The notes beneath the pieces were generated by a model. The model worked only from the letters and a program-made list of their open reading frames with translations, made no database searches and was not told where the DNA came from. This document shows, in pieces, positions 13,295-60,413 of a DNA stretch of 64,000 nucleotides (position 1 is its first letter; each line of letters opens with the position of its first letter). The DNA comes from Alphaproteobacteria bacterium (lineage in GTDB: Bacteria; Pseudomonadota; Alphaproteobacteria; Rs-D84). The translations under genes and the position numbers were made by a program. Location: contig SUUL01000004.1 in the NCBI GenBank assembly GCA_015062545.1, positions 5,881 to 69,880 on the forward strand, written 5' to 3'.

Positions 13295-13858
13295 ATGAAA
13301 AAAATTATGTTCTTATTTGGTTTGTGTGTCTGCATGCCTGCTGTGGCCGAAGAAGGGGCGGCAGAAAATACAAAAACTGAAACAGTGGTTGTAGAGCGTA
13401 TGTCCTGTTCAGATATGCAGGCACGTATCAAGGAATTAAGTGATGTAGAAGATGAAACCGGTGATGTTGCAGCAGAAATTGCCAGTTTAACCCAGGATTA
13501 TCGCCGCAGTTGTATGCGATCTGCAGCAGGGAGGCGGGCATCTACCACCACACGTGCGCCTGTGATTGTGGCAGAACCAGAACAGGTGGAAGAGGTTGAA
13601 CCAGAACAGGCAACAGAAGAGGTCCCTGTTGAAACAGAAACTGTTGTGGAAGAGGTGTCTGTCGCAGAAGAAGTTGTGTCAGAAATTACACCAGAGCAAG
13701 AATTGGCAAATTTGGATGCGGGTTTATGTGCAGACGGCAGCAAGCCAAATCAATTTGGTTGTTGTGGGGATGAAATATTCAAGGATTTGGGTGATGCAAT
13801 ATTTGCGTGTTGCCCAAGGGGTGACGACACAACTGAATGTTTTCCGCCAATAAATTAA
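13295..13858 (+). CDS. secreted Glu-rich protein with C-terminal Cys cluster
   Basis: signal peptide MKKIMFLFGLCVCMPAVA; Glu/Val low-complexity middle; C-terminal C...GCC...CCP...CFPPI. Confidence 0.7.
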   Translation: MKKIMFLFGLCVCMPAVAEEGAAENTKTETVVVERMSCSDMQARIKELSDVEDETGDVAAEIASLTQDYRRSCMRSAAGRRASTTTRAPVIVAEPEQVEEVEPEQATEEVPVETETVVEEVSVAEEVVSEITPEQELANLDAGLCADGSKPNQFGCCGDEIFKDLGDAIFACCPRGDDTTECFPPIN

Positions 13859-13955
13859 ATCTAATGACTTATCTAAAAGGAAAAACGATGGCTCATGTAA
13901 CTTTTGTACACTACGCCATCGTTTTCCCTTTTATCTAAATCATTATCTTTAATTT
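13852..13955 (-). repeat. 104-bp hairpin element, full copy 1
   Basis: 24-nt arm + 17-bp stem (aaaggaaaaacgatggc) + 22-nt core tcatgta-N7-tacactac + stem + 24-nt arm; differs from the 57805 copy by 1 nt; strand assigned from G.U/G.A pairing. Confidence 0.95.
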
Positions 13956-14010
13956 CTACCACCGCAAGGGGGGTGGCGTTTTTATCATTTTTATGATATA
14001 ATTAACTGCT

Positions 14011-15195
14011 ATGGCGAGAGATACTTATATTTCAGTTGGTAAAAAAATAAATGGATTTTCGTTTGCGAACTTGGGGTTGTTCACAGGATTTGCAGACGGT
14101 ATTTATAATGCTGTATATTCGTTGGTGATTTTGGAAATTTTTCGCAGCAGTGCCATTGTCGGTGTTTATGTTACCTTGTATTCTGTGTTTTGTTTTGTGG
14201 TTGGGTTGTTTGTAAATGAAATTTTGCGCCAGTTTTCCAAGGTACGTGTGTTTTATTTTGCATTATTGATGCTGGCGGTTTGCTATGCGATGATGAGTTT
14301 TTCAATCTTGCCACGTACGTTTATTATACTTGATTGGACGACCGGTATTGCGATTACGCTGTCTTCGGCATTGATACCATTGTTTATGTCGGATTTTTCA
14401 AAAAATATTGGGATGGCGCGGTTAAATTCGCGTTATCATTTGTGGTTAAATGTGGGTGCGCTGTTTGCACCAACGGTTGCAGTGTTTATAGCAAACAGGT
14501 TTGATAATCGTGCCGCGTTCTTTGGGTCGGCGATGATATATCTGATTGCGTGGGGTGTGTTTAAATACTTTAAAATTGTTCAGCAAGACAAAAAAATCAA
14601 AGCGGTTAATCCACGCCGTACGTTTCGCGCGTTGTGGAAAAATACAGTTGCCTTTTTCCGGTTGCCAAATATGGCGCGTGCGTATGCGATAAATTTTGCG
14701 TATTATTCTTTGCGTGCGTTACGTGTGTTGTATGTGCCAATTATTGTTATTGAAAATGGATTCTCTAAAGATACGTTGGGTTGGGTATTGACGTTGGGAA
14801 TTATACCGTATTTGTTGTTAAGTGATTTGATGGGGCGGCTGGTAAAAAGATATGGTAAAACCATTTGGCTGATGTTGGGCTTTGGTTCTTTTGCGGTATT
14901 GTCAATGTTGGCAACGTTTGTGACGGGTATCCCATTGTTGGCGATATTTGTTGCATGGCAGATTTCAGGTGCATTGATGGAATCTGTGCATGATTTGTTA
15001 TTCTTTGATAATGTGACGCGGGCACAACAAACAAAGTATTATGGTGTTTTCCGCACCAGTGTTAATTTGCCCAGTGTTATTGTGCCAACGTTGGGTGCTG
15101 CGATGATTGCGGTATATGGCGTAACCGCTGCGGTCTGGGCGATTACTGCAACGATTGGTGCGTTGGCGGTTGGGGTGCTGATAAAAAGAAAGTGA
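14011..15195 (+). CDS. MFS transporter
   Basis: about 12 hydrophobic segments; GRLVKRYGK motif-A-like loop. Confidence 0.85.
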   Translation: MARDTYISVGKKINGFSFANLGLFTGFADGIYNAVYSLVILEIFRSSAIVGVYVTLYSVFCFVVGLFVNEILRQFSKVRVFYFALLMLAVCYAMMSFSILPRTFIILDWTTGIAITLSSALIPLFMSDFSKNIGMARLNSRYHLWLNVGALFAPTVAVFIANRFDNRAAFFGSAMIYLIAWGVFKYFKIVQQDKKIKAVNPRRTFRALWKNTVAFFRLPNMARAYAINFAYYSLRALRVLYVPIIVIENGFSKDTLGWVLTLGIIPYLLLSDLMGRLVKRYGKTIWLMLGFGSFAVLSMLATFVTGIPLLAIFVAWQISGALMESVHDLLFFDNVTRAQQTKYYGVFRTSVNLPSVIVPTLGAAMIAVYGVTAAVWAITATIGALAVGVLIKRK

Positions 15196-15198
15196 TAC

Positions 15199-15227
15199 TT
15201 GCAATTCCAAGAATTTCTTTGTATGAT
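15199..15227 (+). promoter_or_regulatory. sigma70-type promoter of recA
   Basis: TTGCAA-N17-TATGAT. Confidence 0.6.
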
Positions 15228-15253
15228 TTTCTTAAGAAAAAAGGGGAAAGTTT

Positions 15254-16339
15254 ATGGCAAAGAAAGAAGTTGTAAAAGAGGCAGGTGCGCCTGCAAAAAA
15301 TCCAGCATTGGAATCTGCGTTGGCACAAATTCAAAAACAATTCGGTAAAGAAGCCATCATGAAAATGGGCGATGGTTCACAACAGAATATAGAAGCGATA
15401 TCGTCTGGGTCGCTGGGGTTAGATATTGCATTGGGTGTTGGTGGTTATCCAAAGGGACGTATTGTTGAAATTTATGGCCCAGAATCTTCGGGTAAAACAA
15501 CATTGGCGTTGCATGCGGTGGCTGAATCGCAGAAGAAGGGTGGAACATGTGCGTATATTGATGCAGAAAATGCCTTGGACCCATCTTATGCAAAAAAGTT
15601 GGGCGTTGATGTTTCTAATTTAATTATTTCACAGCCTGATTCTGGGGAACAAGCATTGGAAATTGCAGATACTTTGATTAAATCTGGGGCGGTTGATGTT
15701 GTTGTGATTGACTCGGTCGCGGCATTGGTGCCAAAGGCAGAACTGGAAGGAAATATTGGTGATTCTTTTGTTGGTACAACTGCGCGTTTGATGTCACAAT
15801 CGTTAAAGAAATTGGCAGGCTCTGTATCGCGCAGCAATACATTGCTTATCTTTATCAATCAAATTCGTATGAAGATTGGTGTTATGTTTGGTAATCCAGA
15901 AACAACATCTGGTGGTAATGCATTAAAATTCTATGCATCTGTGCGCCTTGATATTCGCCGTACAGGACAAATTAAGGACAAGGAAGCCATTATTGGAAAT
16001 GAAACGCGTGTCAAGGTTGTAAAGAACAAGGTTGCACCACCTTTCCGTACGGTTGACTTTAAGATTATGTATGGCGAAGGTATTAGTCGCATCAGTGAAA
16101 TTTTGGATATGGGTGTGAAATATGACCTGATTGAAAAGGCGGGCAGTTTCTATTCGTACAACAGTGAACGCATGGGCCAGGGCGAGGCCAATGCGCGTCA
16201 GTGGTTGAAAGATCATCCGGATGTTCAAGAAGAATTGCTGAAAAAGATTATGGCGCGTTCTTCGGGTATTGCAGAAGAAATGACAACAGGGCCGGTTGAT
16301 GATGATGAGGGAACAATGGTTGGTGAAGTTGAAGAATAA
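15254..16339 (+). CDS. recA: recombinase RecA
   Basis: [39 protein letters not shown]. Confidence 0.99.
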
Positions 16340-16427
16340 AGCAAAGGGCATAATATGACCGATTTATCAGAAGGATAAACAAAGGAGTTGATGATGAAAC
16401 CGGAAATAGATGAATGGTAAAGATTTA

Positions 16428-16460
16428 ACCCCGACCGGGAAAACCTGGTTGGGGTAATTT
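16428..16460 (+). terminator. hairpin terminator after recA
   Basis: ACCCCGACCGGG-AAAA-CCTGGTTGGGGT. Confidence 0.6.
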
Positions 16461-16491
16461 GTCATAATAAAACAAACCAAAGGGATGAAAT

Positions 16492-17388
16492 ATGAATATA
16501 GATAGGGCGTGGGCATTAACAAAAATCTTTTTTCAATCACATGTTTTTAATTGGCCTTGGCGGTCGCGTGAACATAGACGCGATGTCAGAACAAATGTTT
16601 TATCCCGCGTTGCACCTGCGTACTTCAAACGTTATCTGCCAGCAGCGATGGCGGTAAAAGAAACCGAAGTTATCAAAGATGATAAAAACGAAAAGATTTT
16701 TACAATCTGGCAACAGGGCGAAGAAAACGCGCCTGAATTGGTAAAGTCTTGTTTTCGCAGTATCAGAAAACACTGTAAACAAGAATTGGTTGTTTTGGAT
16801 GACAGTAATATTTTTGATTATATAACCTTGCCAGATGTTATTGTGCAAAAGTACAAGGCTGGAAAAATTCGCCGTGCACATTTTGCGGATATTTGTCGTG
16901 TGGAACTGCTGTACCAATATGGTGGTATTTGGTTGGATTCAACAGACTTTGTAGTAAGCCCAATTCCAAAATGGATTATCGATCAAGATTTCTTTATGTA
17001 CCTGGTTGGTGATAAAGTAGGGCAGAAATATATGTTCTGTCAGAACTGTTTTATTCGTGGACGCAAAGGCTCTTTCTTGTTGGGGGCATGGCGGGCAATG
17101 ATTTTAGATTATTGGATGCATGAAGAAAAATCATTTGATTATTTTATGCATCAGATGTTATTCCAGACACTGGTGCAAAATGAGCCGCGCGCAATGAAAT
17201 ATTTTGCCGAAATGCCACATGTTGATCAATATCCAACACATACACTGTGGCATGAATATAAGTTCCAACCTTATGATGAAAAGTTGTTCAAAGAACTGAC
17301 CAAAGATGCGTTCTTCCAAAAGACGGCGTATGCAGATGCACCGCGGCCGGGGACTTTCTCGCAGGCGATTTGTGATATGAATAAATAA
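16492..17388 (+). CDS. capsular polysaccharide synthesis protein (DXD glycosyltransferase-like)
   Basis: WQQGEENAPELVKSC, HFADICRVELLYQYGGIWLDST, DYFMHQ. Confidence 0.85.
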   Translation: MNIDRAWALTKIFFQSHVFNWPWRSREHRRDVRTNVLSRVAPAYFKRYLPAAMAVKETEVIKDDKNEKIFTIWQQGEENAPELVKSCFRSIRKHCKQELVVLDDSNIFDYITLPDVIVQKYKAGKIRRAHFADICRVELLYQYGGIWLDSTDFVVSPIPKWIIDQDFFMYLVGDKVGQKYMFCQNCFIRGRKGSFLLGAWRAMILDYWMHEEKSFDYFMHQMLFQTLVQNEPRAMKYFAEMPHVDQYPTHTLWHEYKFQPYDEKLFKELTKDAFFQKTAYADAPRPGTFSQAICDMNK

Positions 17389-17392
17389 GGGG

Positions 17393-18412
17393 ATGTGTAT
17401 GCCAAAGATTTCTGTAATTATTCCAATTTACAATGTAGAAAAATATTTGCGCAGATGTTTGGATAGTGTGTTAAATCAGACTTTTGCTGACTGGGAAGCA
17501 ATTTGTGTAAACGATGGCAGCCCTGATAATAGTGATATTATCTTGGCGGAATATGCCGCAAAAGATGCGCGTTTCAAAATCGTAAATAAAAAAAATGGCG
17601 GTTTGTCTGATGCGCGTAATGCCGGGATGCAGGTTGCAACTGGGGATTATATTTTGTATCTGGACAGTGATGACTTTATTCATCCGCAAACCATGGAAAT
17701 TGCATATTCATTGGCTGTGCGTGATGGGGCTGACATCGTATCGTTTACGTATGACAGAATTTATCGACCACAATTAATGGTGCGACATGTTTTGAAAATG
17801 GATACTGATAATGTAATTCCAAAACGTATGAATAAAAAGTATGATGTTGCAAAAATAAAAACACTTGTAACAGATGATGTGTATGAATACGCAACGGAAC
17901 GTACGCATAATAAACCTGGTAAGAAAAAGAAATGGCTGATTAAGCATTGCCAGGTGTGGAAGAATTTGTATCGGCGTGAACTGATTGCAGATATTCCTTT
18001 TATCAAGGGCTTGCTGTTTGAAGATTTCCCGTGGTGGAGTGAAGTTATGTTGCGTAATCCGCGTGTGACGATTGCACCATTACCATTGTATTTCTATATT
18101 CCAAATTTTGGTGGAATTGTTTTAAGTGCAAAACAATTACGTATTATGCAGAGTTTGTGTACCGGAATAAAAACCGCCTTTTTGAAATATCAACAGGAGG
18201 CAACACCATATCAAATGGAACAATGGTCAAAAAATTTTCAGTGGTATTTTATTAACTGGGCATTTCGTAAAATAAAATATATGGCTGGCGCAGAAGATAT
18301 GTCTGCAGCACGTGCGTGCTTCCAAGAACTGCAACAGGTTGGGGCGTTGGATAATCCGCCGTATAGATGGGCGCGAAAATTACGCCAAGATATATTGAAT
18401 TTTATAAAATAA
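17393..18412 (+). CDS. glycosyltransferase family 2
   Basis: ISVIIPIYNVEKYL, VNDGSPD, NGGLSDARN, LDSDD, FEDF. Confidence 0.92.
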   Translation: MCMPKISVIIPIYNVEKYLRRCLDSVLNQTFADWEAICVNDGSPDNSDIILAEYAAKDARFKIVNKKNGGLSDARNAGMQVATGDYILYLDSDDFIHPQTMEIAYSLAVRDGADIVSFTYDRIYRPQLMVRHVLKMDTDNVIPKRMNKKYDVAKIKTLVTDDVYEYATERTHNKPGKKKKWLIKHCQVWKNLYRRELIADIPFIKGLLFEDFPWWSEVMLRNPRVTIAPLPLYFYIPNFGGIVLSAKQLRIMQSLCTGIKTAFLKYQQEATPYQMEQWSKNFQWYFINWAFRKIKYMAGAEDMSAARACFQELQQVGALDNPPYRWARKLRQDILNFIK

Positions 18413-18414
18413 TG

Positions 18415-18440
18415 AATGACCCGTGTTATGCGGGTCATTT
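18415..18440 (+). terminator. intrinsic terminator
   Basis: AATGACCCGT-GTT-ATGCGGGTCATT inverted repeat after the GT2 stop. Confidence 0.65.
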
Positions 18441-18493
18441 ATTGCTTGATTTTGTTTTCATTTAGTATATAATCACAAGGCTTTGAATTTGTT

Positions 18494-18568
18494 GCGGGCA
18501 TAGTACAAAGGCTAGTATGCAAGCCTTCCAAGCTTGAAATGCGGGTTCGATTCCCGCTGCCCGCACCA
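18494..18568 (+). tRNA. tRNA-Gly(TCC)
   Basis: acceptor GCGGGCA/TGCCCGC, anticodon arm CAAGC-CTTCCAA-GCTTG, T-arm GCGGG-TTCGATT-CCCGC, encoded CCA; discriminator A. Confidence 0.96.
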
Positions 18569-18624
18569 CACTTCGCCCAGGCTTCGTGTGGCAAGCCACA
18601 AGAAAAGATGTGGCGAATAAGTTC

Positions 18625-18711
18625 GGGCGTGCGCCGGAGTTGGAGAGCCGGGGCAGACTGTAAATCTGTTGGCTTAAGCCTGAGCTGGTTCGAATCCAGC
18701 CACTCCCACCA
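18625..18711 (+). tRNA. tRNA-Tyr(GTA)
   Basis: anticodon arm GCAGA-CTGTAAA-TCTGT, long variable arm, T-arm GCTGG-TTCGAAT-CCAGC, ACCA end; one C.U mismatch in the acceptor stem. Confidence 0.93.
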
Positions 18712-18854
18712 TTAAAACGACCCACCTTGTGTGGGTCTTTTTAATGGTCTGGGCAGTCTGAGATGAGAACCAGCGGTTCGACAATGAGTAATTTTTGCAA
18801 ACATAGTGCAGCTAAATTGTTAGGAATGTTTTGCGGCGCACGTTTTTTATAAAT

Positions 18855-18882
18855 TTGCATTTTATGATAAAAGGAGTATAAT
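18855..18882 (+). promoter_or_regulatory. putative sigma70 promoter
   Basis: TTGCAT-N16-TATAAT. Confidence 0.5.
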
Positions 18883-18888
18883 GCTCGT

Positions 18889-19119
18889 TGAATCTGAGAG
18901 ATTGGATTCGGGGCTGTAGCAAGCCTTATCAGTTCGGTGCGAAAGCATCGTTAGTTTTGTTGATGTTTCGGTGCTTTTTGCACCGCAATAACCCTGACGC
19001 TCGTTTCTTGTGGTCGGGGAGTCGTGTGTTATACAACAGGGAATAACCTAAAGACCACGAAGTCATTTAACTGATATGATTGCTAACTCCCCGACCGCCA
19101 ATTTCGGCGGTTTTCTTTT
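18889..19119 (+). ncRNA. putative structured leader or ncRNA ending in a terminator
   Basis: multiple stems (18927-34/19069-76, 18935-50, 18969-85, 18992-96/19037-41, 19010-22/19086-98) and terminator ACCGCC..GGCGGT-TTTCTTTT; family not recognised. Confidence 0.45.
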
Positions 19120-19138
19120 AGCAAAAAAGGGGGAAGAA

Positions 19139-46600: not shown

Positions 46601-48883
46601 ATGGCAAAGAAATCAACTTTTTTACCGGGCAGTATATCAGATGCTTTGCGGTCAATGTCCAGCCGATTGGTGGGGGTGTTGATTTTTCTGATTGGTGGAT
46701 GGGCGACATGTGCGTTGTTGTTTTATAATCCGTATTTAGATGGATTTGGTGTGGCCAGTACGTTGGGTGGTCAGTCTGTGATGGGATGGATTGTTGGATG
46801 TATCCGTTATGGTGTTGGTGCGGTGCCGGCATTGTTTCTGTTTTTGTGTGTGATGCGATTCGGTTTTGTGAAGTTGGTTGGATTGCATGGTGATTATGCG
46901 CCAGAATATGATTTCTTGCGTGGGTTTATTGCATTGTGTTTGGGGGCGGTTGGATTGGGCTTGATGTCGCCAAATGCATCTTATGGCGGGCTGTTTGGTG
47001 CGATTGCGGCGGCGGATTTGATGGCGCTGATGGGTAATGTTGCAATTATTGTTGGAATTTTTTCTTTTGTTGGTTTTTTGTGGATGGCGGGCAGCTTGTT
47101 GCATGTGCGTTTGTCGCATTTGCGGTGGGCAATGCGCTTGATGTACAAGTGGTTGCGCGTTATTGCCGCGGCGTTCAGATTGACAGATATGACCCCTGCC
47201 CAAGTGTTGGCAGAATCTGATGATGAAGAAGATATAGAAGAAGACGAAGAGATTGGGGAAGATGAAGAAGAGGCTTCAGAAGAAAAGCCAAAGCGCAGTT
47301 TGCTGGGACGTAAAAACCAAAAGAAAGTGGCGGGTGCTGTGGCCGCGGTTGCCACGCCAAAGCGTGCGCGCGCGGGAACGCAATTCAAATTGCCAGATCC
47401 GAAAATGTTGGAAAAGTCAAATTTCAGTAAATATTCTGTAACACCAGAATTAAAGCAAAATGCCCGCAGTATGGAAGTGAAATTTGCGCAATATGGTGTG
47501 CGTGGCAAGGTGGTTGGAATCAAGCCTGGGCCAATCGTTACTTTGTATGAATTTATGCCAGATGATGGTACGCGTATGGCGGATGTTAATAAAACTGTAA
47601 CAGATATGACGCGCGCGATGGCAACAGAAAGTATTCGTATCGCACATATTCCACGTACACAATTAATTGGTGTAGAAATGGTGAACTTAACCCGTCAAAC
47701 TGTGCGTTATCGTGGTCTGATGGAAAATCCGCTGTTTGTGGAATCTAAATATAAAATACCATTGGCGTTGGGGGTTGATATTGGTGGCAATCCAATGTTC
47801 TTTGATTTGGCGAAAATGCCGCACATGCTGGTTGCAGGGCGTACAGGGTCTGGTAAGTCTGTGTTTGTACAATCAATTATTACGTCTATTGTGTATCACT
47901 TTACACCAGACAAGTGTAAACTGATTATTATTGACCCAAAGGGTGTTGACTTTGGTTTTTGGGATGATATTCCACATTTAATCACACCGATTGTTAAGTT
48001 AGAACCAGAGCCGGCTGTAAATGCTTTGAAATGGGCGGTGCGTGAAATGGAAGAACGTTATAAACAATTACAGGTTCTGAATGCGCGCAATATTGAAAGT
48101 TATAATGAAATTGCAGCGCAGAAACGCGAGGCTGGTGAAAAAATTACTAAACAAGTCGCAGTTGGTACAGACGAAGAAACCGGGGAATTATTATTTGAAA
48201 CCCAAGAAGTAGATTTGTCAGATATGCCATATATGGTCATTATTATTGACGAGGTTGCGGATTTGATGAGTTTGGCGCGTAAAGACGTAGAAGCCTGTGT
48301 GCAACGTATTGCACAAAAGGCACGTGCGGCGGGTATTCACTTGGTTATGGCGACCCAGCGTCCAGACGCAACAACAATTACAGGTGTTATCAAGGCAAAT
48401 TTCCCAACGCGTATTTCTTTCCAGGCGCGCAGCCGTATTGATAGTGTGACATGTCTGGGTGAAGGCGGGGCAGAGCAGTTATTGGCAATGGGTGACATGT
48501 TATTCAGCGAGGCCGGCCGCGTTCCTGTGCGTATCCATGGTGCGTTTATCGATGACAATGAATTGAAACGTATTGGTGATTTCTTGCGCAGTCAAGGCGC
48601 GCCAGAATATGCCGAAGGCGTTACGGATTCTGCCGATGGTGGCATGGGGGGTGGCGATATTGCCGGCATCCCAGGGGCGATTGGTGGTGCGTCTGGGGAT
48701 AAAGATGCGGATTTATATGCGCGCGCCAAAGAATGTGTTTTGCGTGATAAAAAACCGACAATTTCTTATATTCAGCGCCGTTTACAAATTGGCTATAACA
48801 AGGCTGCAGGCTTTATGGAACGCATGGAAGAAGATGGTATTGTGTCTGCGCCTGATGCAAATAACAAACGTCACATCCTGTAA
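46601..48883 (+). CDS. ftsK: DNA translocase FtsK
   Basis: N-terminal TMs, PHMLVAGRTGSGKS, IIDEVADLM, ATQRP, gamma domain IQRRLQIGYNKA. Confidence 0.96.
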   Translation: MAKKSTFLPGSISDALRSMSSRLVGVLIFLIGGWATCALLFYNPYLDGFGVASTLGGQSVMGWIVGCIRYGVGAVPALFLFLCVMRFGFVKLVGLHGDYAPEYDFLRGFIALCLGAVGLGLMSPNASYGGLFGAIAAADLMALMGNVAIIVGIFSFVGFLWMAGSLLHVRLSHLRWAMRLMYKWLRVIAAAFRLTDMTPAQVLAESDDEEDIEEDEEIGEDEEEASEEKPKRSLLGRKNQKKVAGAVAAVATPKRARAGTQFKLPDPKMLEKSNFSKYSVTPELKQNARSMEVKFAQYGVRGKVVGIKPGPIVTLYEFMPDDGTRMADVNKTVTDMTRAMATESIRIAHIPRTQLIGVEMVNLTRQTVRYRGLMENPLFVESKYKIPLALGVDIGGNPMFFDLAKMPHMLVAGRTGSGKSVFVQSIITSIVYHFTPDKCKLIIIDPKGVDFGFWDDIPHLITPIVKLEPEPAVNALKWAVREMEERYKQLQVLNARNIESYNEIAAQKREAGEKITKQVAVGTDEETGELLFETQEVDLSDMPYMVIIIDEVADLMSLARKDVEACVQRIAQKARAAGIHLVMATQRPDATTITGVIKANFPTRISFQARSRIDSVTCLGEGGAEQLLAMGDMLFSEAGRVPVRIHGAFIDDNELKRIGDFLRSQGAPEYAEGVTDSADGGMGGGDIAGIPGAIGGASGDKDADLYARAKECVLRDKKPTISYIQRRLQIGYNKAAGFMERMEEDGIVSAPDANNKRHIL

Positions 48884-48985
48884 ATTAAATATAATAATTC
48901 ATCTACAAGCGGTGCCGGCAATTCATGTAGCGTCTGTACACTACATTGCCGGCACTACTTGTATCTAAATCATTATCTTTAATTT
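48882..48985 (-). repeat. 104-bp hairpin element, full copy 2
   Basis: same arms and core as copy 1; 17-bp stem caagcggtgccggcaat/attgccggcactacttg; overlaps the ftsK stop. Confidence 0.93.
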
Positions 48986-49065
48986 ACTGCATTTCTGGGT
49001 GTGGGTATAATTTTTACTTTTATATAAATCTTTTTTATGTTAGAATAAGTTACATTAGAGAGAGT

Positions 49066-52137: not shown

Positions 52138-55053
52138 ATGAAAGGGCAGAAATTTTTAAGTTCATTGAAAAATGCAATGGGAACGGTCATGTTGCTGGCG
52201 GGCGCGTTTTTCGTGTGTTCAACTGTGCTGTCTATCCGTACGGTGTTTGCAGACCCAATCGCACCGGTAAATATGGATGTTTATGGTGTGCAGTCTGGAC
52301 GTGCAAGTGCACGTACATCTGGTCGTGCCAGTCCACGTGGTGCAAATTCTGCCACGTCACGCGCGACTGTTGCGCGCACGGCGGTTGCAAATGGACGTGT
52401 AAATGCAACGCCTGTACGTAATGTGAATTCACGCACAGTTGCCAGTCGTACAACATCACCACGTGCAAATGCCACATCATCCAGAAATGTCGTATCGCGC
52501 GAGGCGAATGTTATAAATCGTGCAAATCAGGCGCGTAATGTTCGTGCACGTACGGCGGTCGCAAATGGTGTATCTACGGCCGCGGGGGCGCGTGTGTCCT
52601 TGGCAGGCAGTGCGGTTCGCGGTAACAAAGGTACAACATCCACCAATTATTCTTATCTGACAAATAAATTATATACGGGGAATTATTCCAATATTATTGA
52701 TTCAACAACCGGATTGATTTCCGATGATGCGTATCAGGTATGTATGGAATCTTATTATACATGTATGGACGAAATTTGTACTGCGCGTAATGCCGCGCAA
52801 CGCAGATGTGCGTGTGCGGGCCGTGTCAAGGCATTTGCAGATGCCGAAGCGCAACTGGAAACAGCAAATGAAGAACTTATCAAAGTGTCAGGTGAATTGG
52901 CGTTGTTGATTGCAAACAAGGGTAAAGATGTTTCGGTTGCTTTCCAATTAACAGATGCAGAAAAGGTTATGAACTGTGTTTCTTGGAAGGATACAACCAA
53001 TCAATATGGTGTTAATTCGCAAGAAGCAATAGATTGGTGTTCAAATCATGGTATCTTTAATAATGGCAAAACGGTTACCAGTTGTGCGAAACCAGAATAT
53101 TGTTCCGAAGCCGGAAATGACTTTGGTTTTGATGTTTCCACGTTGGATGGAACGGGGTCTGATATTTTGGCAACACTGAAATCGTGGGCAGATGCCAAAG
53201 ATAATACAATCACAATCTTGCAAGACGACAAAGAAGGTTTGTTGGGGGCGTTCGAAGGAATTTCAAATGTTGTTGGCAGTGTGTCCGGTATCAGTGGGGC
53301 ATTTGCAGATGCCGAAGATTTAGAAGATACATTGGCGGAAACATGGGGATATGATTTGTTTGCACATGCACATAACGAAGTTTGTAGCCGCGTTTTGGAT
53401 TCTTGCTTTAATGGTATTTACGAAGCATGTGGTTCGCCATCTTCGTTTGGAGGCAAGTGCGCAAATGGTCAATCGTCAAATTGTCCGTTTAACTATAATT
53501 CCAAGATAGAAGTTTCCAAAGCAGGGGATATTACATTGAATGAACGTGGTGCAACAGTTACAACAAATTCCAGTGCAACATGCTTTGGTTATACATCTGC
53601 ATCGGGCGACCCATATTCCAGTTTGCGTGGGCCGGTCGCAGATGCACGCCGCAGCATTATGAATAAATATCTGTTGGATGCAAATGCGGACTGTGATGCG
53701 TATGGTGAACAGTTGCGCATAACCGCACAAAATATCGGTTATCAAAAGGTTGCCGCACAACAAGCGTTGCAACAGAAACGTTTGGAATTTGATAACGAAG
53801 AAAAAGAAACTGTCTTGGCCCAGGCAATAGAGGCAATGGGTAACTTTGATGAATGTATCAGTGAAATTATGGATTGCTATGAAACACAGGCACGTTCAAA
53901 TGATAACTGGACAGATGCACGTATCAAGACATACTGTGCACAGATTGCAAATGTTCCACATTGTTATGAAGAAATGATTTGTAATCCATCAATGGCACAA
54001 TTCCGTGCGGTTATTGATGTCGCGGATAGTGGCAGCTGTAAAAACAGCCAAGACTATACCCAGAATACATGCCGCAATGTCGTGACATTGAATGAAATTA
54101 TCAATGGATTTGGCAACAGTGTAGAGGCAGATTATATCGCAGCAGAAGGCACGGGTTCTTCAATCGCAATGCGTGAACAGTGCTTGATGGATGCGGGTAT
54201 AGATGCCGTCAGAAATTGGTCTGCATTTGAAGAAGCAGCGGACAGGGTTAGATGTTCTGTTGCAGAATTGAATAATGTCAATGCAAAGCAAGGTTGGAAG
54301 AGAAGTGCAGATAAAGAATGTACAGAAATTACAGTATGTAAGGATGGTTATGAACTGAAGGGTGGTAAGTGTGAGGTGTCCGACTCTTCTGCTGATGACG
54401 ATGATAATACGCCAGGTAACGATGATAACCCATCTGGTTCCACCGGGGGGGGGGGGAATAAGGTTACTTGTTCTGCAAATCAGGTAGAATATAATAACCA
54501 ATGTTATTACAAGACCCGGTCATGTGCGCCAATGCCCGCGAATGCCAAGTCGGGAACACAGACTTTTGAGAATGGCGCGTATAGTGATTGCGTAATTTCG
54601 GAATGTAACAATGGTTATACTCTGGATAGTAATTTATGCCATGCGTCTAAAAAGGATTGTGATACGAAGGGAGAAGGCGTAAGCAAAGGGTATCAGGAAT
54701 ATAATAAAAACACTGGTTATTATGGTGCCTGTATTATTACAGAATGCGTAGATGGCTATGAATTGCAGAATAATAGTTGCGTAAAGCAACAATCTGAGAG
54801 AGAAGCATGTGTCGATGCTGGCGGAGAATGGGAGGCGGATTCTTCAACATGTATTTGTTATGAGCCGGACGGTGATATATATGGGTTTAAGCCAGCTGAA
54901 TGGAATCCAAAGACATTGAAATGTGAGTGTGATAGCGGATTTGATAAACTCGGTAATGAATGTCACCCAGCTACAGAAGACGCATGCACAGATCTGGGTG
55001 GTAGCTGGATAGAAGATGAAGAAGGTGGAGATAGTCATTATTGTGAGATTTAA
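52138..55053 (+). CDS. large secreted Cys-rich protein with Arg/Ala/Ser/Thr-rich N-region and C-terminal Cys repeats
   Basis: AGGAG RBS; signal-like N-terminus; four CxxG(Y/F)xxxxxxC modules; in-frame G12 tract. Confidence 0.8.
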   Translation: MKGQKFLSSLKNAMGTVMLLAGAFFVCSTVLSIRTVFADPIAPVNMDVYGVQSGRASARTSGRASPRGANSATSRATVARTAVANGRVNATPVRNVNSRTVASRTTSPRANATSSRNVVSREANVINRANQARNVRARTAVANGVSTAAGARVSLAGSAVRGNKGTTSTNYSYLTNKLYTGNYSNIIDSTTGLISDDAYQVCMESYYTCMDEICTARNAAQRRCACAGRVKAFADAEAQLETANEELIKVSGELALLIANKGKDVSVAFQLTDAEKVMNCVSWKDTTNQYGVNSQEAIDWCSNHGIFNNGKTVTSCAKPEYCSEAGNDFGFDVSTLDGTGSDILATLKSWADAKDNTITILQDDKEGLLGAFEGISNVVGSVSGISGAFADAEDLEDTLAETWGYDLFAHAHNEVCSRVLDSCFNGIYEACGSPSSFGGKCANGQSSNCPFNYNSKIEVSKAGDITLNERGATVTTNSSATCFGYTSASGDPYSSLRGPVADARRSIMNKYLLDANADCDAYGEQLRITAQNIGYQKVAAQQALQQKRLEFDNEEKETVLAQAIEAMGNFDECISEIMDCYETQARSNDNWTDARIKTYCAQIANVPHCYEEMICNPSMAQFRAVIDVADSGSCKNSQDYTQNTCRNVVTLNEIINGFGNSVEADYIAAEGTGSSIAMREQCLMDAGIDAVRNWSAFEEAADRVRCSVAELNNVNAKQGWKRSADKECTEITVCKDGYELKGGKCEVSDSSADDDDNTPGNDDNPSGSTGGGGNKVTCSANQVEYNNQCYYKTRSCAPMPANAKSGTQTFENGAYSDCVISECNNGYTLDSNLCHASKKDCDTKGEGVSKGYQEYNKNTGYYGACIITECVDGYELQNNSCVKQQSEREACVDAGGEWEADSSTCICYEPDGDIYGFKPAEWNPKTLKCECDSGFDKLGNECHPATEDACTDLGGSWIEDEEGGDSHYCEI
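54445..54456 (+). repeat. G12 homopolymer tract in CDS
   Basis: 12 consecutive G, in STGGGGN. Confidence 0.9.
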
Positions 55054-55054
55054 T

Positions 55055-55083
55055 AAAAATCCCGCTGTTTGGCGGGATTTTTT
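55055..55083. terminator. bidirectional terminator
   Basis: AAAAATCCCGCT-GTTT-GGCGGGATTTTTT. Confidence 0.85.
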
Positions 55084-55112
55084 GTGTCAGATATCTTGAA
55101 CGTGAATTGATA

Positions 55113-56438
55113 TTATTTTCCCAGACACAGTTGACCAAATGTTTTATCCAAAACTTCGGACGTGGTGATTGTGCCAAGAATCTTGCCAATCGTGTCCGTG
55201 GCGCGGCGGGTGTGTTCCGCAAATATGTCGTAATTATCACCAGCCTGTAACGCCATGTGCAAATCTGCGCGGGCGGTTTCCAATAATGCTTTTGTGCGGG
55301 CGTTGATTACCAAATTGTTTTCAGATCCATCCATAAGTGTGTGAATCTTGTCGCGCAGGGCGGTCAATAAGTCAGGCATCCCATCGCCAGTATGTGCAGA
55401 TACGTACAAGTAATTTTCAATATCCAAAATGTGATTCCCAGATTTTGGTAACAAATCCGATTTGTTTATAACAATGATTTCATTGTCAGAATCTTTGGGG
55501 GTGAATTTTGCTGGCAGTTGTTCCGGTGTGTACACGTGAACAACAATATCTGCATTTTCTATTTCTGTCTTGGTGCGTTCAATACCAATGCTTTCAATTT
55601 TGTCATCTGTTTCACGCAGGCCCGCGGTGTCAGATAAATTTACCATAAAACCATCAATGTCCAGATTAACCGATACAACATCACGTGTTGTGCCGGCAAT
55701 ATCTGATACAATCGCACGGTTCGAACCCGCCAAATAATTAAATATGGATGATTTTCCAACATTCGTTTCGCCAACCAATGCAATATTTATACCACCACGA
55801 ATCGCACGGGATGTGTTGTATCCATTTAATGCATTGTTAATTTCTTTATATAACTTTTCTGTGCGCGTGTAAATCGTTTCGCCAATGTTTGCGGGTAAAT
55901 CATCCGCGTTGTAGTCCAATATTGCCGCCGCATACGCGGATATCTCAACCATCTGGTTGCGCCACGTGTTGTAAATTTCGCTGTCGCGTCCCAGCATGGA
56001 TTTTAAGGCGTGTTTTCTTTGTTGGTCGGTTTGTGCATCCAGTAATGCCGCCAGACCATCAACGTCCGCCAAGTCCATCTTGTTGTTGTAAAATGCGCGT
56101 CTGGAAAATTCCCCAGGGGTTGCCATGCGCATGCCCAATGTTTTCAGGTATTCAAATGTCGCGTTAATTGTTGCCGGCGCGCCGTGCGTGTGTAATTCAA
56201 TAACGTCCGTGCCGGTAAAACTGTGTGGGGCGGGAAAATATATCGCCAGACATTGGTCGATTAAATCGTCCGTGGTATCGGTCAAATTACAAAAATATGC
56301 GTGGCGGGGGACAAATTCCGATTTGTTTATGAATTTGGAAAAAATGTCTGACAGATGGTCGCCAGATATACGAATAACCGCAACGCCGGATTTGCCGTGC
56401 CCGCTGGATAATGCAAAAATTGTGTCGTTTGTATTCAT
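55113..56438 (-). CDS. mnmE: tRNA modification GTPase MnmE
   Basis: DTIFALSSG, SFTGTDVIELHTHG, GETNVGKSS, AGTTRD, DTAGLR, C-terminal LCLGK. Confidence 0.96.
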   Translation of the reverse strand: MNTNDTIFALSSGHGKSGVAVIRISGDHLSDIFSKFINKSEFVPRHAYFCNLTDTTDDLIDQCLAIYFPAPHSFTGTDVIELHTHGAPATINATFEYLKTLGMRMATPGEFSRRAFYNNKMDLADVDGLAALLDAQTDQQRKHALKSMLGRDSEIYNTWRNQMVEISAYAAAILDYNADDLPANIGETIYTRTEKLYKEINNALNGYNTSRAIRGGINIALVGETNVGKSSIFNYLAGSNRAIVSDIAGTTRDVVSVNLDIDGFMVNLSDTAGLRETDDKIESIGIERTKTEIENADIVVHVYTPEQLPAKFTPKDSDNEIIVINKSDLLPKSGNHILDIENYLYVSAHTGDGMPDLLTALRDKIHTLMDGSENNLVINARTKALLETARADLHMALQAGDNYDIFAEHTRRATDTIGKILGTITTSEVLDKTFGQLCLGK

Positions 56439-57031
56439 TATTTATTACCACTTATTTCTTTCAATGCCAATGGAACCAGTTTAGATACGTCTGCCGTTGG
56501 ATTTTGATTTACCAATTTTTGTGCCATTTCAATTATGTCTAATCTGCGATAGCCCAATGCTTCCAGCGCCATCAATAAATCAGGCAGGGCAGAACCTGCG
56601 CTGGATGTGCCGCCGGTGTCTGGGGCAAATAATGTTGCAGATGCGCCACCGACTTTGTTTTTCAATTCAACAATGATTTTTTCTGCCATCTTTTTGCCAA
56701 CGCCTGGGGCGGTTGCAATCGTTTTGGCATCGCCGGTCGCGATTGCAGACATTAAGGTGTCAGAATTTATTGTGCCCAAAATCGCCAAGGCAACCTTTGG
56801 ACCCACACCAGATACGCCTGTTAACATATTAAACAGGTTTTGCCCGTTTAGCGTTGTGAAACCAAACAGACGAATTGAATCTTCGCGCACAACCGTTTCA
56901 ATCCACAGTTCAACAGTACTTTTATGTGTCAGGTATTCTGCTGTATAGACCTTGTATCCGACACCGCCTGTTAATAAAATAACAAAACCATCGCCGATAT
57001 AGTCAACTATGCCTTGCAATTTTCCAATCAT
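56438..57031 (-). CDS. ruvA: Holliday junction branch migration protein RuvA
   Basis: MIGKLQG, GGVGY, VREDSIRLFGF, VSGVGPKVALAIL, PGVGKKMAEKIIVELK. Confidence 0.96.
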   Translation of the reverse strand: MIGKLQGIVDYIGDGFVILLTGGVGYKVYTAEYLTHKSTVELWIETVVREDSIRLFGFTTLNGQNLFNMLTGVSGVGPKVALAILGTINSDTLMSAIATGDAKTIATAPGVGKKMAEKIIVELKNKVGGASATLFAPDTGGTSSAGSALPDLLMALEALGYRRLDIIEMAQKLVNQNPTADVSKLVPLALKEISGNK

Positions 57032-57081
57032 TTGTTATCCTTTTGGGGTAATTTTAATCTAAATAAATAAAAAGGTCAAAT

Positions 57082-57798
57082 ATGAGTGGACACAGTAAAT
57101 GGCATAATATTCAACATAAAAAGGGCGCGGCAGACGCTGCACGCAGTGGCTTGTTTACCAAGTTGGCACGTGAAATTACAATGGCGGCAAAGTTGGGCGA
57201 TAAAAATCCTGATAATAACCCACGCCTTCGCTTGGCGATTTTGACAGCCCGCAAAAATTCTATGCCAAATGATAACATCAAGCGCGCGATTGACAAGGCA
57301 TCTGGCGCGAACACAGAAAGCTATGAAGCGGTACGTTACGAAGGGTATGGACCGGGGGCTGTACCTGTTATCGTAGAAGCCTTGACCGATAACCCACGCC
57401 GTACAGTGCCAGAAATCCGTAATATCTTTGCCAAAAATGGTGGTAATATGGGCGAAGAAGGTTCTGTTGTATTTATGTTTACACGCGCGGGTCAAATCAT
57501 GTACCCGGCATCAATCGGTAAAACCGAAGATGAAATGATGGAAATTATTATGGAAGCAAATGCGGATAATTTGGAAACATCAGAAGAGGGCTTTATCATC
57601 ACAACAAAACCCGAAGATTTTATCAACGCACAAAAATACTTGGCGGATATTTTGGGTGAACCAGAACAGGCAGAATTAACCTGGTTACCAAACATGCCAA
57701 TGGATTTGGATGATGAAGCGTATGCCAAAATTGAAAAATTGGTAGATGCGCTGGATGCAAATGATGATGTGCAGAAGGTGTTTACAGCGGCTGCCTAA
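57082..57798 (+). CDS. yebC: YebC/PmpR family protein
   Basis: MSGHSKWHNIQHKK, NPRLR, YEGYGPG, TDNPRRT, DDVQKV. Confidence 0.96.
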   Translation: MSGHSKWHNIQHKKGAADAARSGLFTKLAREITMAAKLGDKNPDNNPRLRLAILTARKNSMPNDNIKRAIDKASGANTESYEAVRYEGYGPGAVPVIVEALTDNPRRTVPEIRNIFAKNGGNMGEEGSVVFMFTRAGQIMYPASIGKTEDEMMEIIMEANADNLETSEEGFIITTKPEDFINAQKYLADILGEPEQAELTWLPNMPMDLDDEAYAKIEKLVDALDANDDVQKVFTAAA

Positions 57799-57804
57799 AA
57801 AAAT

Positions 57805-58080
57805 AAATTAAATCTAATGACTTATCTAAAAGGAAAAACGATGGCTCATGTAACTTTTGTACACTACGCCATCGTTTTTCCTTTTATCTAAATCATTATC
57901 TTTAATTTCTTTCGCTAATCTTGGGGTTGGGTGGAATCTCATGTATCGCATGTACACTACGATTCCCGATTTGTTTTTATCTAAATCATTATCTTTAATT
58001 TCTTACCATCGCAAGGAGTTGTTGGGCGATGGCTTATGTAACTTGGTGTACACTACGCCATCGTTTTTGGTTTTTTTATC
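57805..58080 (-). repeat. array of hairpin elements: full copy 3 (57805-57908) plus truncated copies (57933-58001, 58027-58080)
   Basis: three cores, two intact right arms, linkers ctttcgctaatcttggggttgggt and cttaccatcgcaaggagttgttggg. Confidence 0.93.
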
Positions 58081-58131
58081 CTTTTTTATATACGTATTTT
58101 ATGCTATAATTTATCAAAAGGAGTTTTATAA

Positions 58132-59388
58132 ATGAAAAAATCTTTGTCAGGGATTGTAGGGATTTTGGTTGCGTTTGGCGTGTTTGCTGCAAATGCCGAT
58201 ACTAATTGGGGCGCACGTTCGGGGTCTGTCGCAAAATTGGATGGCGCGCCGGCGGTACGTGAACAACAGAATGTTAACTATGAAAAATATCAGACACGTA
58301 CATTGACACGTACATACGAATCTACGGATGGCGGGGATTTGTATTATGTGAAGCCCGCAAATCGCAGCGCGCTGTACAAGCAATATGATGCCGCAAATTC
58401 TTCGTCTGCACGTGCGGTCAAGACAACCAAGCGTCAATCCCGTAGCGAGAAAGTTGTCGCTAAGATGAAACGTAAATATTATTTGGCACATCCTTTCTTT
58501 CAACCTTTGCAGGGCAAGTTTGGATCTGTGACAGATTTGTCTTATACGTCTGGCAAGTTTGATTTTGAATTAAATCAGGTTGTGCCTGTGTATGATGGCG
58601 AAACACCAAAATATCCATTAACAGGTGTAGGTGGCGAATGGAAAAATAATAATTTGGCAATCAAAGAAGACTTTAGCTATGGTATTACTGATCGTGTTGC
58701 ATTGGTTGGTATGTTGCAATATAACGCAGCAGAAAGTGAAGTTGATTGGGGACAAAGTGGACCATCGGAAAGTATGGATGACAGCAGCTTGAATCTGTTC
58801 GGTTTGGGGGCGCAATGGCGTTTTGTCGATAATGCGGATTGGATTGCAACTGTGTCAGGATATTATCAGCATCAAAAAGATGTTTCTAATAATATCATCT
58901 TGGATTTGAAAGCAGGGTACAAGGTTGCACAATCTACGATATATGGGTTGGGACGCGCCTGGTATCTGGATTTAGAAGGTAATTCATACGGCAGCTTTAT
59001 AGAAGGTACAGATGCAGATGGTGTGTATGCCGCAACATATATCCCATATCAGGTTGGCGAAAGTGAAATTATGTACTTTGAAGCCGGATTGGGTGTGTTT
59101 AGTGTGCTGCAAGAAGACTGGACATTGAATCTGGAAGCGGTCTTTGGTAATTATGATTGGCACAATAGTGCAACTATCAAAGGGGCAATCGGATGGCAGC
59201 CAAACGATTGGTTCGCATTGAATCTGTATGCAAAAACATCTTTCTATGATAATGCAGATGGCAAAAATTTAGGTCTGTATTGGATGGAGCCAAATATCGG
59301 ATTTGATGCGTTGCAAAAAATTGGTTCGGCCAAGGTGGATAATTCATCCGAAACATCAATCGGTGTACAGGCAATATTCCAATTCTAG
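58132..59388 (+). CDS. putative outer-membrane beta-barrel protein
   Basis: signal peptide ending ANA; amphipathic beta pattern; C-terminal GVQAIFQF. Confidence 0.75.
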   Translation: MKKSLSGIVGILVAFGVFAANADTNWGARSGSVAKLDGAPAVREQQNVNYEKYQTRTLTRTYESTDGGDLYYVKPANRSALYKQYDAANSSSARAVKTTKRQSRSEKVVAKMKRKYYLAHPFFQPLQGKFGSVTDLSYTSGKFDFELNQVVPVYDGETPKYPLTGVGGEWKNNNLAIKEDFSYGITDRVALVGMLQYNAAESEVDWGQSGPSESMDDSSLNLFGLGAQWRFVDNADWIATVSGYYQHQKDVSNNIILDLKAGYKVAQSTIYGLGRAWYLDLEGNSYGSFIEGTDADGVYAATYIPYQVGESEIMYFEAGLGVFSVLQEDWTLNLEAVFGNYDWHNSATIKGAIGWQPNDWFALNLYAKTSFYDNADGKNLGLYWMEPNIGFDALQKIGSAKVDNSSETSIGVQAIFQF

Positions 59389-59455
59389 GGTATTATAAAA
59401 TCCCCCAGATTTTTTCTGGGGGAATGTGTGTTCAAAGCGAGAGAGGGGATTTTCA

Positions 59456-60193
59456 ATGCGTAAATTTTTATCTGTGGGGTTGGTTTCGTTGGTAATGGCA
59501 ACACCATCTGTGGTGCGTGCAAATGATTTATCTTTGGATTCGGCAGACCCTTTGTTTTTACAAGGTGCAGAACAGATTTTAACACAAACGTCTGTTACGT
59601 ACTGGGATCATATTTTGCGGGCAGGGCAATCTGTGTCGTATGGGCTAAATAATCGTTTGGCGATTGGGGCAAATGTTCATTATCAGCATGACTTTAATGG
59701 CAACGAAGATGGTTTTTCTGCGATTGATTTAGGTGCCACATATCGTATGTCTGCACCAGGACAGACCGAATCGGATGTAATTTCAGATGTTTTGTTTGGG
59801 TTCAAGTTTGGCGGTGGTTCCAAGGTGCGCACACCTGATTATGCAGATTCTACATATTATCTGGGGGTGCGTTTCGGACGTCAGTGGTTGGGTATGACAT
59901 TGGCGGCAACCATAAAGTCAACTTGGGTATTTGATGATACGCGTGGCACGGCCTTTATTGATTTTAGTCCAGAAGCATATTTTAGAATTTCACCTGATTT
60001 CCGTTTGGGTGGTGGTTTTACAATTCGCAAGGCGACACACAAGGATCCAATTACCCATAAGGATTATGATCAAGAATGGTTACATATGAAATTGGTTCGT
60101 CAGTATGGGCGCACGCAGTATATTGGGCATGTGGACTATGAATTTGAATCAGATGATGCACAGGTGGGGGCTCGCGTCAACATCCTCTTCTAA
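59456..60193 (+). CDS. putative outer-membrane beta-barrel protein
   Basis: signal peptide ending VRA; amphipathic beta strands; C-terminal GARVNILF. Confidence 0.75.
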   Translation: MRKFLSVGLVSLVMATPSVVRANDLSLDSADPLFLQGAEQILTQTSVTYWDHILRAGQSVSYGLNNRLAIGANVHYQHDFNGNEDGFSAIDLGATYRMSAPGQTESDVISDVLFGFKFGGGSKVRTPDYADSTYYLGVRFGRQWLGMTLAATIKSTWVFDDTRGTAFIDFSPEAYFRISPDFRLGGGFTIRKATHKDPITHKDYDQEWLHMKLVRQYGRTQYIGHVDYEFESDDAQVGARVNILF

Positions 60194-60195
60194 AT

Positions 60196-60413
60196 AAATT
60201 AAATATAATAATTCATCTAAAAGCAAATTGGGAATCTCATGTAGCGCATGTACACTACGATTCCCAATTTGCTTTTATCTAAATCATTATATTTAATTTC
60301 TTTCGCTAATCTTGGGGTTGGGTGGAATCTCATGTAGCGCATGTACTACTCGCGATTCCCGATTTGTTTTTATCTAAATCATTATATTTAATTTCTTTCG
60401 CTAATCCTGGGGG
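60196..60413 (-). repeat. array of hairpin elements: full copy 4 (60196-60299) plus truncated copy (60324-60394) and linkers
   Basis: 17-bp stem aaagcaaattgggaatc/gattcccaatttgcttt; linker ctttcgctaatc(t/c)tgggg occurs twice. Confidence 0.93.

Follow-up and report, generated by a model that had tools for sequence, protein, structure and literature searches.

Dispersed palindromic repeats of Candidatus Enterousia and its relatives are polar to gene ends and to GC skew

Introduction

A 64,000-nucleotide stretch of contig SUUL01000004.1 (assembly GCA_015062545.1, from an alphaproteobacterium of the order Rs-D84), which we call the window, contains several copies of a palindromic repeat that stand against the stop codons of genes. 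A full copy forms a single long hairpin, with conserved arms, a conserved apical core and an inner stem that changes in sequence and remains paired. The locus raises the question of what kind of element this is, why it is found where genes end, and what its variable stem means. The initial annotation of the window read the fixed stem length and the maintained pairing as signs of a ruler, or of a scaffold carrying a guide, for some protein.

PMC12306168 places Enterousia in the order Rs-D84 and gives its genomes a size close to 1 Mb or less. Nowhere in that text do the terms repeat, palindrome, transposon or mobile appear, and published accounts of Candidatus Enterousia, as far as they are available, deal with metabolism rather than repeats.

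Results

A repeat family of one lineage

The repeats form a new, previously undescribed family of dispersed palindromes of Candidatus Enterousia and its Rs-D84 relatives. The initial annotation had not recognised the family, in agreement with the Rfam search of the window, which at gathering score returned two tRNAs and nothing else; a permissive Rfam search of positions 57700-58200 gave generic hairpin (miRNA/snoRNA) models alone, far under their thresholds. No match to phages or plasmids was obtained by blastn with 57805-58001, and a pattern scan of viral contigs gave 0 matches.

The source genome (G000; 938,825 bp in 15 contigs, 41-42% G+C, 97% complete) contains 17 element loci. A covariance model, R1, built from an alignment (A1) of 135 unique full copies, finds 16 full-length top-strand matches in it with E < 1e-13, two weaker full matches (C15:11721 and C6:207059) and several partial units. 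The first of the weaker matches belongs to a divergent subfamily (G000:C15:11721-12100 and L003:2797-2902) with different arms (AAATAAATTAAATTCTGTGGATGCTT...) and an unchanged core and hairpin plan, which forms a three-unit array beside ribosomal-protein-like genes.

The family proves to be lineage-wide in a search of relatives with R1, a check that the initial annotation had proposed. We searched 151 genomes of the order, scoring at most 26 candidates per genome, so that no count per genome can exceed that number. Matches were found in 92 of 107 sampled genomes of the genus (the other 15 have no detectable copy) and in 101 of 121 genomes of the family; beyond the family, one of four genomes in a second family matched and none of 25 in four others. 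A pattern scan in which each species was represented by a single genome yielded at least 119 stretches. The 80 matches listed all come from gut metagenome-assembled genomes (MAGs) labelled as Candidatus Enterousia, as "Alphaproteobacteria bacterium" or as "uncultured proteobacterium". Genomes of about 0.9 Mb keep some 17 to 26 copies or more.

A hairpin maintained through compensating substitutions

The full unit is a hairpin of 104-106 nt with imperfect 24-nt outer arms, an inner stem of 17-18 bp and a 22-nt apical core; the inner hairpin alone (stem-core-stem) measures about 56 nt. The 135 copies of A1 comprise 77 of 104 nt, 50 of 105 nt and 8 of 106 nt, and in an earlier set of 134 full copies the core is 22 nt long in 122 and 23 nt in 12. 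The consensus element begins with AAAT(T/A)AA... and ends with ...TT(A/T)ATTT, and the parts ATGTA and TACACT.C of the core (ATGTA-N7-TACACT.C) are invariant or nearly so. At two places, 12 nt apart, ATCT stands opposite ATCT, giving conserved C.T/T.C tandem mismatches. The pairing layout given in the initial annotation thus stands, with two corrections: the arms are not fully complementary, owing to these mismatches, and the length is not strictly fixed.

The hairpin is maintained through compensating substitutions. In A1, 90.0% of the cells are standard pairs against 71.2% in shuffles, a percentage biased upward by the selection of full copies for pairing (outer arm at least 18/24, inner stem at least 12/16). 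When the partners are slid by 1-3 columns pairing drops to 32-43%. Both sides have changed in 33 of 43 pairs, and the covariation score of the alignment was reached by 0 of 500 shuffles, so the earlier observation that pairing is kept while the stem sequence changes holds well beyond the window. The eleven pairs adjacent to the core each occur as three or four Watson-Crick types and are about 97% paired. The outer arms covary as well, for example AAATTAAAT/ATTTAATTT, AAATAAATTAT/AT.AATTTATTT and GAATAAACAAAAAT/ATTTTTGTTTATTC, and their outer 8 bp are paired in over 95% of copies.

Behind the right arm follows a G-rich tail, for example GCATTTCTAGGGG or C.GCAAGGGG. In arrays, this tail doubles as the degenerate left half of the next unit, which has no left arm of its own, and the tandem units repeat in direct orientation with a period of 88-95 nt. 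Two further features were considered and rejected: a start-stop mini-ORF (open reading frame; ATG-TAA/TAG) in the core, for which an upstream ribosome-binding site is not consistently present, and an alternative terminator fold of the tail with the right stem, for which complementarity is not consistent.

At one site after yebC (L147:2212-2315) the 22-nt core is inverted relative to the arms, with stems and arms kept. The same site in two other genomes (L149:2212-2315 and L150:749-852) has the core in its usual orientation; the loop thus appears able to flip in place, between the inverted stems.

Copies follow stop codons on the locally G-rich strand

Seventeen of the 135 copies lie too near the end of their locus for the upstream frame to be assessed. 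In 106 of the remaining 118, a same-strand frame of at least 100 codons ends between -8 and +13 nt from the element start. The stop codon is TAA in 98 of these 106 frames and is often supplied by the left arm itself; all copies lie outside long reading frames. The 12 copies without such a frame comprise 6 directly behind the right arm of another unit, the core-flipped copy, 4 that share a conserved upstream stretch and 1 with a convergent gene alone. In the four with the shared stretch (L006, L076, L104 and L126), TGGGGGTGATTGTTTCCC.CCAAT is conserved just ahead of the element, in the 30 nt before it; an Rfam search upstream of these copies found only tRNAs, located elsewhere, and no family covering the conserved stretch.

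The copies are polar to GC skew as well as to gene ends. The top strand is the locally G-rich strand at 17 of 17 loci of the source genome and in 114 of 118 copies on loci of at least 3 kb (median skew +0.178); skew falls below -0.05 in two copies, one of them core-flipped. In the source genome 412 of 613 genes with callable skew (67%) lie on the locally G-rich strand, and the chance of 17/17 if elements merely followed genes is about 0.001, a figure for loci that are not fully independent.

Copies are confined to one chromosome domain

In the three genomes inspected for this (G000, G101 and G107), copies occur only in the strong-skew domain of the chromosome. In G000, contigs C3, C5, C7-C10 and C13-C15 have a strong GC skew at third codon positions with the same sign for genes of both strands (on C7, for example, +0.42 and +0.27), and C6, C11 and C12 show coding-strand skew only; every one of the 17 loci is on a strong-skew contig or in the tail of C6, where skew is strong as well. 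G107 is a single contig of 958,618 bp with a cumulative skew minimum at about 175 kb and a maximum at about 700 kb. Its skew is about +0.15 over 180-700 kb and about -0.08 in the other half, its gene-strand bias flips at the switch points, and its R1 matches (253,792, 284,973 and 412,641) are all on the + strand. In G101, contig C2 has 20 matches, all of them on the - strand and within 14-221 kb, a region with a skew of -0.17 to -0.25, and one further match lies on C3; the 180 kb of C1 with strong skew and the weak-skew remainder are both free of matches.

In three genomes of the genus the chromosome halves are unequally skewed: in one half genes of both strands share one sign of skew, at about 0.15-0.25, and in the other the skew is near 0 to 0.08. 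In G000, dnaA is directly followed by an element (C10:9119-9222, C10:9731-10183). A tie between dnaA and the replication origin was considered and not found, dnaA being away from the skew switch in G107.

The bottom strand folds better

The antisense (bottom) strand is the more stable one in 133 of 135 copies, with mean folding energies of -50.7 (bottom) against -39.4 kcal/mol (top) with RNA parameters and -28.5 (bottom) against -23.9 (top) with DNA parameters. The cells that are not Watson-Crick pairs are, on the top strand, pyrimidine-pyrimidine (535), A.C (270), G.T (104) and purine-purine (46); on the bottom strand these cells turn into tandem G.A pairs and G.T wobbles. Since the mismatches occupy about eight fixed positions, few independent events underlie them. 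The opposite mismatch pattern would be expected from a C-to-T bias on the G-rich strand. A wobble test for RNA-level selection, comparing G.T with A.C on the sense strand, gave a sign opposite to that expected of such selection.

Copies in the window

The elements in the window are as follows.

13852..13955, + strand: full copy 1, a 104-nt hairpin of stem type AAAGGAAAAACGATGGC; 102 bits with the covariance model
13956..13992, + strand: terminator-like tail of copy 1, with a small G-rich hairpin (CCACC..GGTGG) and a T-run
48882..48985, + strand: full copy 2, stem type CAAGCGGTGCCGGCAAT
48986..49011, + strand: tail of copy 2, G-rich, ACTGCATTTCTGGGTGTGGG..., as read from the sequence
57805..57908, + strand: full copy 3, 6 nt past the yebC stop codon (57796-57798)
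57909..58001, + strand: secondary unit (93 nt) behind copy 3, without left arm
58002..58081, + strand: third, degenerate unit; linker with GCAAGGAG, 23-nt core variant, without right arm
60196..60299, + strand: full copy 4, stem type AAAGCAAATTGGGAATC, between convergent genes
60300..60415, + strand: secondary unit (60300-60394) plus G-rich tail; Tandem Repeats Finder period 95

The four full 104-bp copies had been placed correctly in the initial annotation, all on the + strand with the layout 24+17+22+17+24, and the partial units at 57909-58001, 58002-58081 and 60300-60394 had been missed. The ORF list also bears out the common orientation next to + strand stop codons, two of which are overlapped: that of ORF 13274..13858 (13856-13858) lies inside the left arm of copy 1, and that of ftsK (48881-48883) shares 2 nt with copy 2. 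The stop codon of ORF 59426..60193 (60191-60193) lies 2 nt ahead of copy 4, and at the far end of the same array the tail of 60300..60415 reaches the stop codon of the convergent gene 60416..61684 on the - strand.

Each full copy is predicted to form one long hairpin with z = -10 to -11, and 0 of 200 shuffles fold as well. The core pattern TCATGTA-N7-TACACTAC matches 5 times in the window, where shuffles give an expectation of 0.05, and the right-arm pattern 6 times, where 0.00 are expected; the matches in surplus of the full copies are the partial tandem units. The unit at 57909..58001 consists, in order, of the G-rich linker or degenerate left half, the core, a right stem of the copy 4 type and the right arm. 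In the third unit the right stem GCCATCG is followed by T-runs, and this unit scores as terminator-like.

Between convergent genes at 55052-55084 the window has an ordinary two-way terminator (AAAAATCCCGC...GCGGGATTTTTT). Near-identical copies of this sequence, 30 nt long, recur widely in related genomes, indicating that the lineage reuses one terminator sequence. Boxes resembling TGnTATAAT, spotted by eye downstream of copies, are unsupported by promoter scans, which near copies 1 and 3 gave scores no better than shuffles.

The variable stems are diverged homologues

Among the 135 copies there are 101 distinct inner-stem 17-mers. Their composition is position-specific: position 12 is G in 86 of them and position 17 is C in 86. 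Of the 101, 75 form one network when linked at four or fewer differences. The initial annotation had described the window stems as three versions that have little in common beyond the outer NAAG. The three window stems do differ pairwise at 8-12 positions, yet observed intermediates bridge them, and graded homology describes the set better. Read from the stem list, basal and apical stem halves combine variously among copies, which suggests exchange between copies. The stems are, as judged from these sequence comparisons, diverged and reshuffled homologues under a pairing constraint and not free guides, a reading to which both the position-specific composition and the intermediates point.

The three window 17-mers were also searched in the source genome, the setting to which we confined single 17-mers because chance matches are expected at 17 nt in large collections. 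Outside the elements they have 0 matches at one or fewer mismatches and one match each at two mismatches, so this search, which had been proposed as a check of the guide idea, provided no targets for it. A ruler is unnecessary too: length varies from 104 to 106 nt, and near-constant length of this kind is expected of descent with few indels.

Turnover of copies

Copies 1 and 3 of the window, at unlinked loci, are 99% alike, with a single-base difference, and the copy 1 stem has one internal mismatch; mean identity within the source genome is 75%. A comparison of orthologous loci, also proposed in the initial annotation, gave a different picture at each of two genes. After yebC, 30 genomes of the genus show varied stem types, empty sites with yebC abutting ruvC, or plain terminators. 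After ftsK, all three genomes examined are occupied, two of them by related stems and one by another type. The genes downstream of the yebC site differ between species, and the elements thus mark synteny breaks. In L141 and L152, yebC and its element are followed by the MFS transporter gene that follows copy 1 in the source genome (14011-15195); the presence of this gene behind different elements suggests rearrangement by recombination between elements. Several contigs of the source genome begin or end at elements (C3:387, C8:70864, C13:2324).

Whole units are gained or lost as blocks, by insertion or by tail-tail recombination. Two near relatives, genome G073 and a metagenome contig, share an identical first unit, and what separates them is exactly one secondary unit of 88 nt, which is of another stem type and is bounded by a direct repeat of the tail. 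A scan for target-site duplications found no excess outside the element (133 copies; shifts -6 to +6, lengths 2-8).

Discussion

A proposed strand-specific repeat of the REP/BIME kind

The explanation that we favour, tentatively and at slightly less than even odds, is that the element is a mosaic palindromic repeat of the kind of REP (repetitive extragenic palindrome) and BIME (bacterial interspersed mosaic element), with no known enzyme, which would be spread by a strand-specific process. Spread or homogenisation may proceed via a folded single-strand intermediate and be tied to the direction of replication, in a manner that would resemble REP and IS200/IS605-type elements. Copies would then persist only where they fall behind the stop codon of a leading-strand gene and ahead of its terminator, a short stretch, and any benefit to the host, such as a 3' hairpin on the mRNA, would be secondary.

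Several points weigh against this explanation. Judging by skew, the better-folding strand would be on the leading-strand template. IS200/IS605-type elements, by contrast, act on the lagging-strand template. The direction of replication is itself deduced from skew and gene-strand bias only, because dnaA in G107, at 347.8 kb, lies about 170 kb from the GC-skew switch. Apart from copies 1 and 3, the copies of the source genome are 73-94% like their nearest partner, which indicates that there was no recent burst. A deletion between direct repeats would explain the 88-nt indel just as well. A metagenome scan with YebC found relatives at up to 98% identity, none of the same strain, and no empty/filled pair within one species, so that insertion of a full unit is presumed. 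The percentage of paired cells is inflated by the thresholds used to choose copies. Finally, the tight placement at stop codons would suit an mRNA function as well, as would the lack of copies behind lagging-strand genes.

No partner enzyme came to light either. In five repeat-rich genomes (G000, G005, G018, G020 and G023; 93-97% complete), Y1_Tnp (PF01797) was found in 0 of 5, the control search having matched 6 of 14 known genomes, and the transposase domains DDE_Tnp_1, rve and IS110 were likewise found in 0 of 5, other transposase families not being searched. Together with RVT_1, present in 2 of the 5 and not in the source genome, this gives no consistent HUH/Y1 or reverse transcriptase partner of the sort that the initial annotation had proposed to look for. 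Mobile genes can be lost from MAGs, which softens the negative result. Phage_integrase domains occur in 4-8 genes per genome in the five. In the source genome, three integrase-domain genes (C6:186707-191421 and C11:130441-130917) lie near local sign changes of GC skew; besides two presumed Xer recombinases, these three may be integrated elements.

Comparison with known repeats and structured sites

REP/RAYT repeats, miniature inverted-repeat transposable elements (MITEs) of the DDE type, attC sites, terminators and Rfam membership each fail at least one of the defining features that we tested. The closest kinds appear to be REP/BIME and, as they are generally described, the Rickettsia palindromic elements (RPE); other small non-autonomous repeats are similar in kind.

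Like REP and BIME, the element is an extragenic imperfect palindrome at gene ends that forms mosaic arrays with linker motifs, its hairpin is kept by compensating changes, and there is no target duplication. It differs in size (104-106 nt against 20-40 nt for REP), in the direct instead of alternating orientation of its array units, and in its strict orientation to gene and GC skew. The tetranucleotide GTAG can be read both ways: as in REP it stands by a hairpin on one strand, here the bottom one, where as read from the sequence it opens the core by a 4-bp TGTA/TACA mini-stem; in REP its place is the 5' foot of the hairpin, here the apical loop. Unlike in the REPIN-RAYT systems of enterobacteria and Pseudomonas, no RAYT/Y1 gene was found in the five element genomes. 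Some of the REPs of E. coli, too, are found no further than 15 nt from the stop codon (PMC12306157).

RPE resemble the element in belonging to Alphaproteobacteria with reduced genomes and in being palindromes of about 100-150 bp with many dispersed copies and no known transposase, at least as RPE are usually described. By the same description RPE insert in-frame inside genes, whereas the elements stay outside frames, at the stop codon. Correia/NEMIS of Neisseria and ERIC of enterobacteria, known as MITE-like repeats that are transcribed into mRNA hairpins, share with the element a size of about 100-150 bp, terminal inverted repeats, an intergenic location and a likely co-transcription with neighbouring genes. 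They are described as having target duplications, both orientations and IS-like ends; the element shows no duplication and no DDE transposase, is a hairpin throughout with a conserved loop, and has a single orientation. Of the features of a DDE-derived MITE, terminal inverted repeats are present, and neither a target-site duplication nor, among the domains searched in the five genomes, a parent transposase was found.

A possible role at the 3' end of mRNA

The principal alternative is that the hairpin serves the host as an RNA element of the 3' untranslated region (UTR), by protecting the mRNA 3' end, by being processed between cistrons by a double-strand RNase, or by stalling or sensing ribosomes. 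As a full account we consider this unlikely, although it deserves more weight than the others below; the two can coexist, since an mRNA role is compatible with a strand-specific repeat. The position speaks for it: 106 of 118 copies start at -8 to +13 from the end of a same-strand frame, the arm often supplying the TAA, and copy 1 sits between a stop codon and a terminator-like hairpin. So does the persistence of the element after ftsK in the three genomes examined and its retention in streamlined genomes of about 0.9 Mb, and the conserved internal and apical loops could be marks for a protein or an RNase. In E. coli, ribosomes are reported to stall at REPs that begin no further than 15 nt from a stop codon, according to an earlier study cited in PMC12306157.

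The folding data speak against such a role: the mRNA-sense strand is the one that folds worse in 133 of 135 copies (-39.4 against -50.7 kcal/mol) and its conserved non-Watson-Crick positions are all pyrimidine-pyrimidine or A.C. What is more, a 3' UTR function predicts neither the near-absence of copies after other-strand genes (1/118), nor the coupling to skew (114/118), nor the restriction to one domain. The 15 of 107 genus genomes with no detectable copy, and the related species in which the yebC site is empty or has a plain terminator, also count against it.

Possible sites of a replication-linked process

A bolder version of the strand-specific idea, to which we give a small share of our belief, smaller than that given to the mRNA role, is that the hairpins are sites of a novel strand-specific process linked to replication direction, either as a new kind of single-strand hairpin element, with a new enzyme or no transposase at all, that would land at the ends of leading-strand genes, or as polar, domain-specific chromosome sites, an option suggested by the single orientation of copies and their restriction to the strong-skew half. 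The apical core and the two tandem mismatch sites would then be protein marks on the better-folding bottom strand.

Improbable is the proposal that the hairpin is a folded single-strand DNA site for a tyrosine recombinase, as in attC or phage dif-like hairpins, which would recognise its structure and not its sequence, act on one strand and depend on orientation to replication. The element has in common with integron attC that a structured site stands right after a reading frame in one orientation, one strand (here the bottom one) folds better, the middle is variable, paired and covarying, and conserved bases are unpaired. The element is in addition polar to replication skew, and each of the five genomes has 4-8 genes with Phage_integrase domains. 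However, the ends of the element carry no RYYYAAC/GTTRRRY core sites, the arm ends being unlike the attC core GTTRRRY; copies are scattered behind ftsK, yebC, dnaA and other housekeeping genes and form no cassette array; XerC/XerD presumably account for two or more of the recombinases; and no recombination product was seen.

Terminators, guides and rulers

An unusually long intrinsic terminator is a still poorer candidate. It would account for the gene-end position, for the T-runs that follow some right stems (for example of the copy 1/3 stem type) and for the terminator-like score of the degenerate third unit. In the full unit, by contrast, no T-run follows the GC-rich stem, next to which comes the A/T-mixed right arm TATCTAAATCATT..., and the conserved loop and mismatches are needless for termination. 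The initial annotation had already set the terminator aside, rightly in our view: the genome has ordinary short terminators, such as that at 55052-55084, and a separate terminator-like hairpin lies directly behind copy 1.

Least credible of all is the scaffold holding a 17-nt guide, or the ruler, for some protein: the stem sequence does vary while pairing and near-constant length persist, and the conserved core and mismatch sites could mark protein contacts, but the stem variants are graded homologues with fixed-position preferences, a guide inside a perfect stem would have no free bases, the window 17-mers find no target in the source genome at one or fewer mismatches, the element matches no phage, plasmid or viral contig, its length spreads over 104-106 nt, and a reverse transcriptase, HUH or IS110 partner is not consistently present.

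Implications

The combination of two polarities, to gene ends and to skew, with restriction to one chromosome domain is unusual among small bacterial repeats. Apart from the repeats, these genomes are peculiar in that GC skew is unequal between their chromosome halves. As the repeats stand at synteny breaks and at contig ends, they matter for the assembly and binning of genomes from Candidatus Enterousia, a gut lineage that is uncultured and whose genomes measure about 0.9 Mb. Polar repeats in so streamlined a genome offer a natural system in which to study how a repeat spreads without a visible transposase, and whether it acts as DNA or as RNA.

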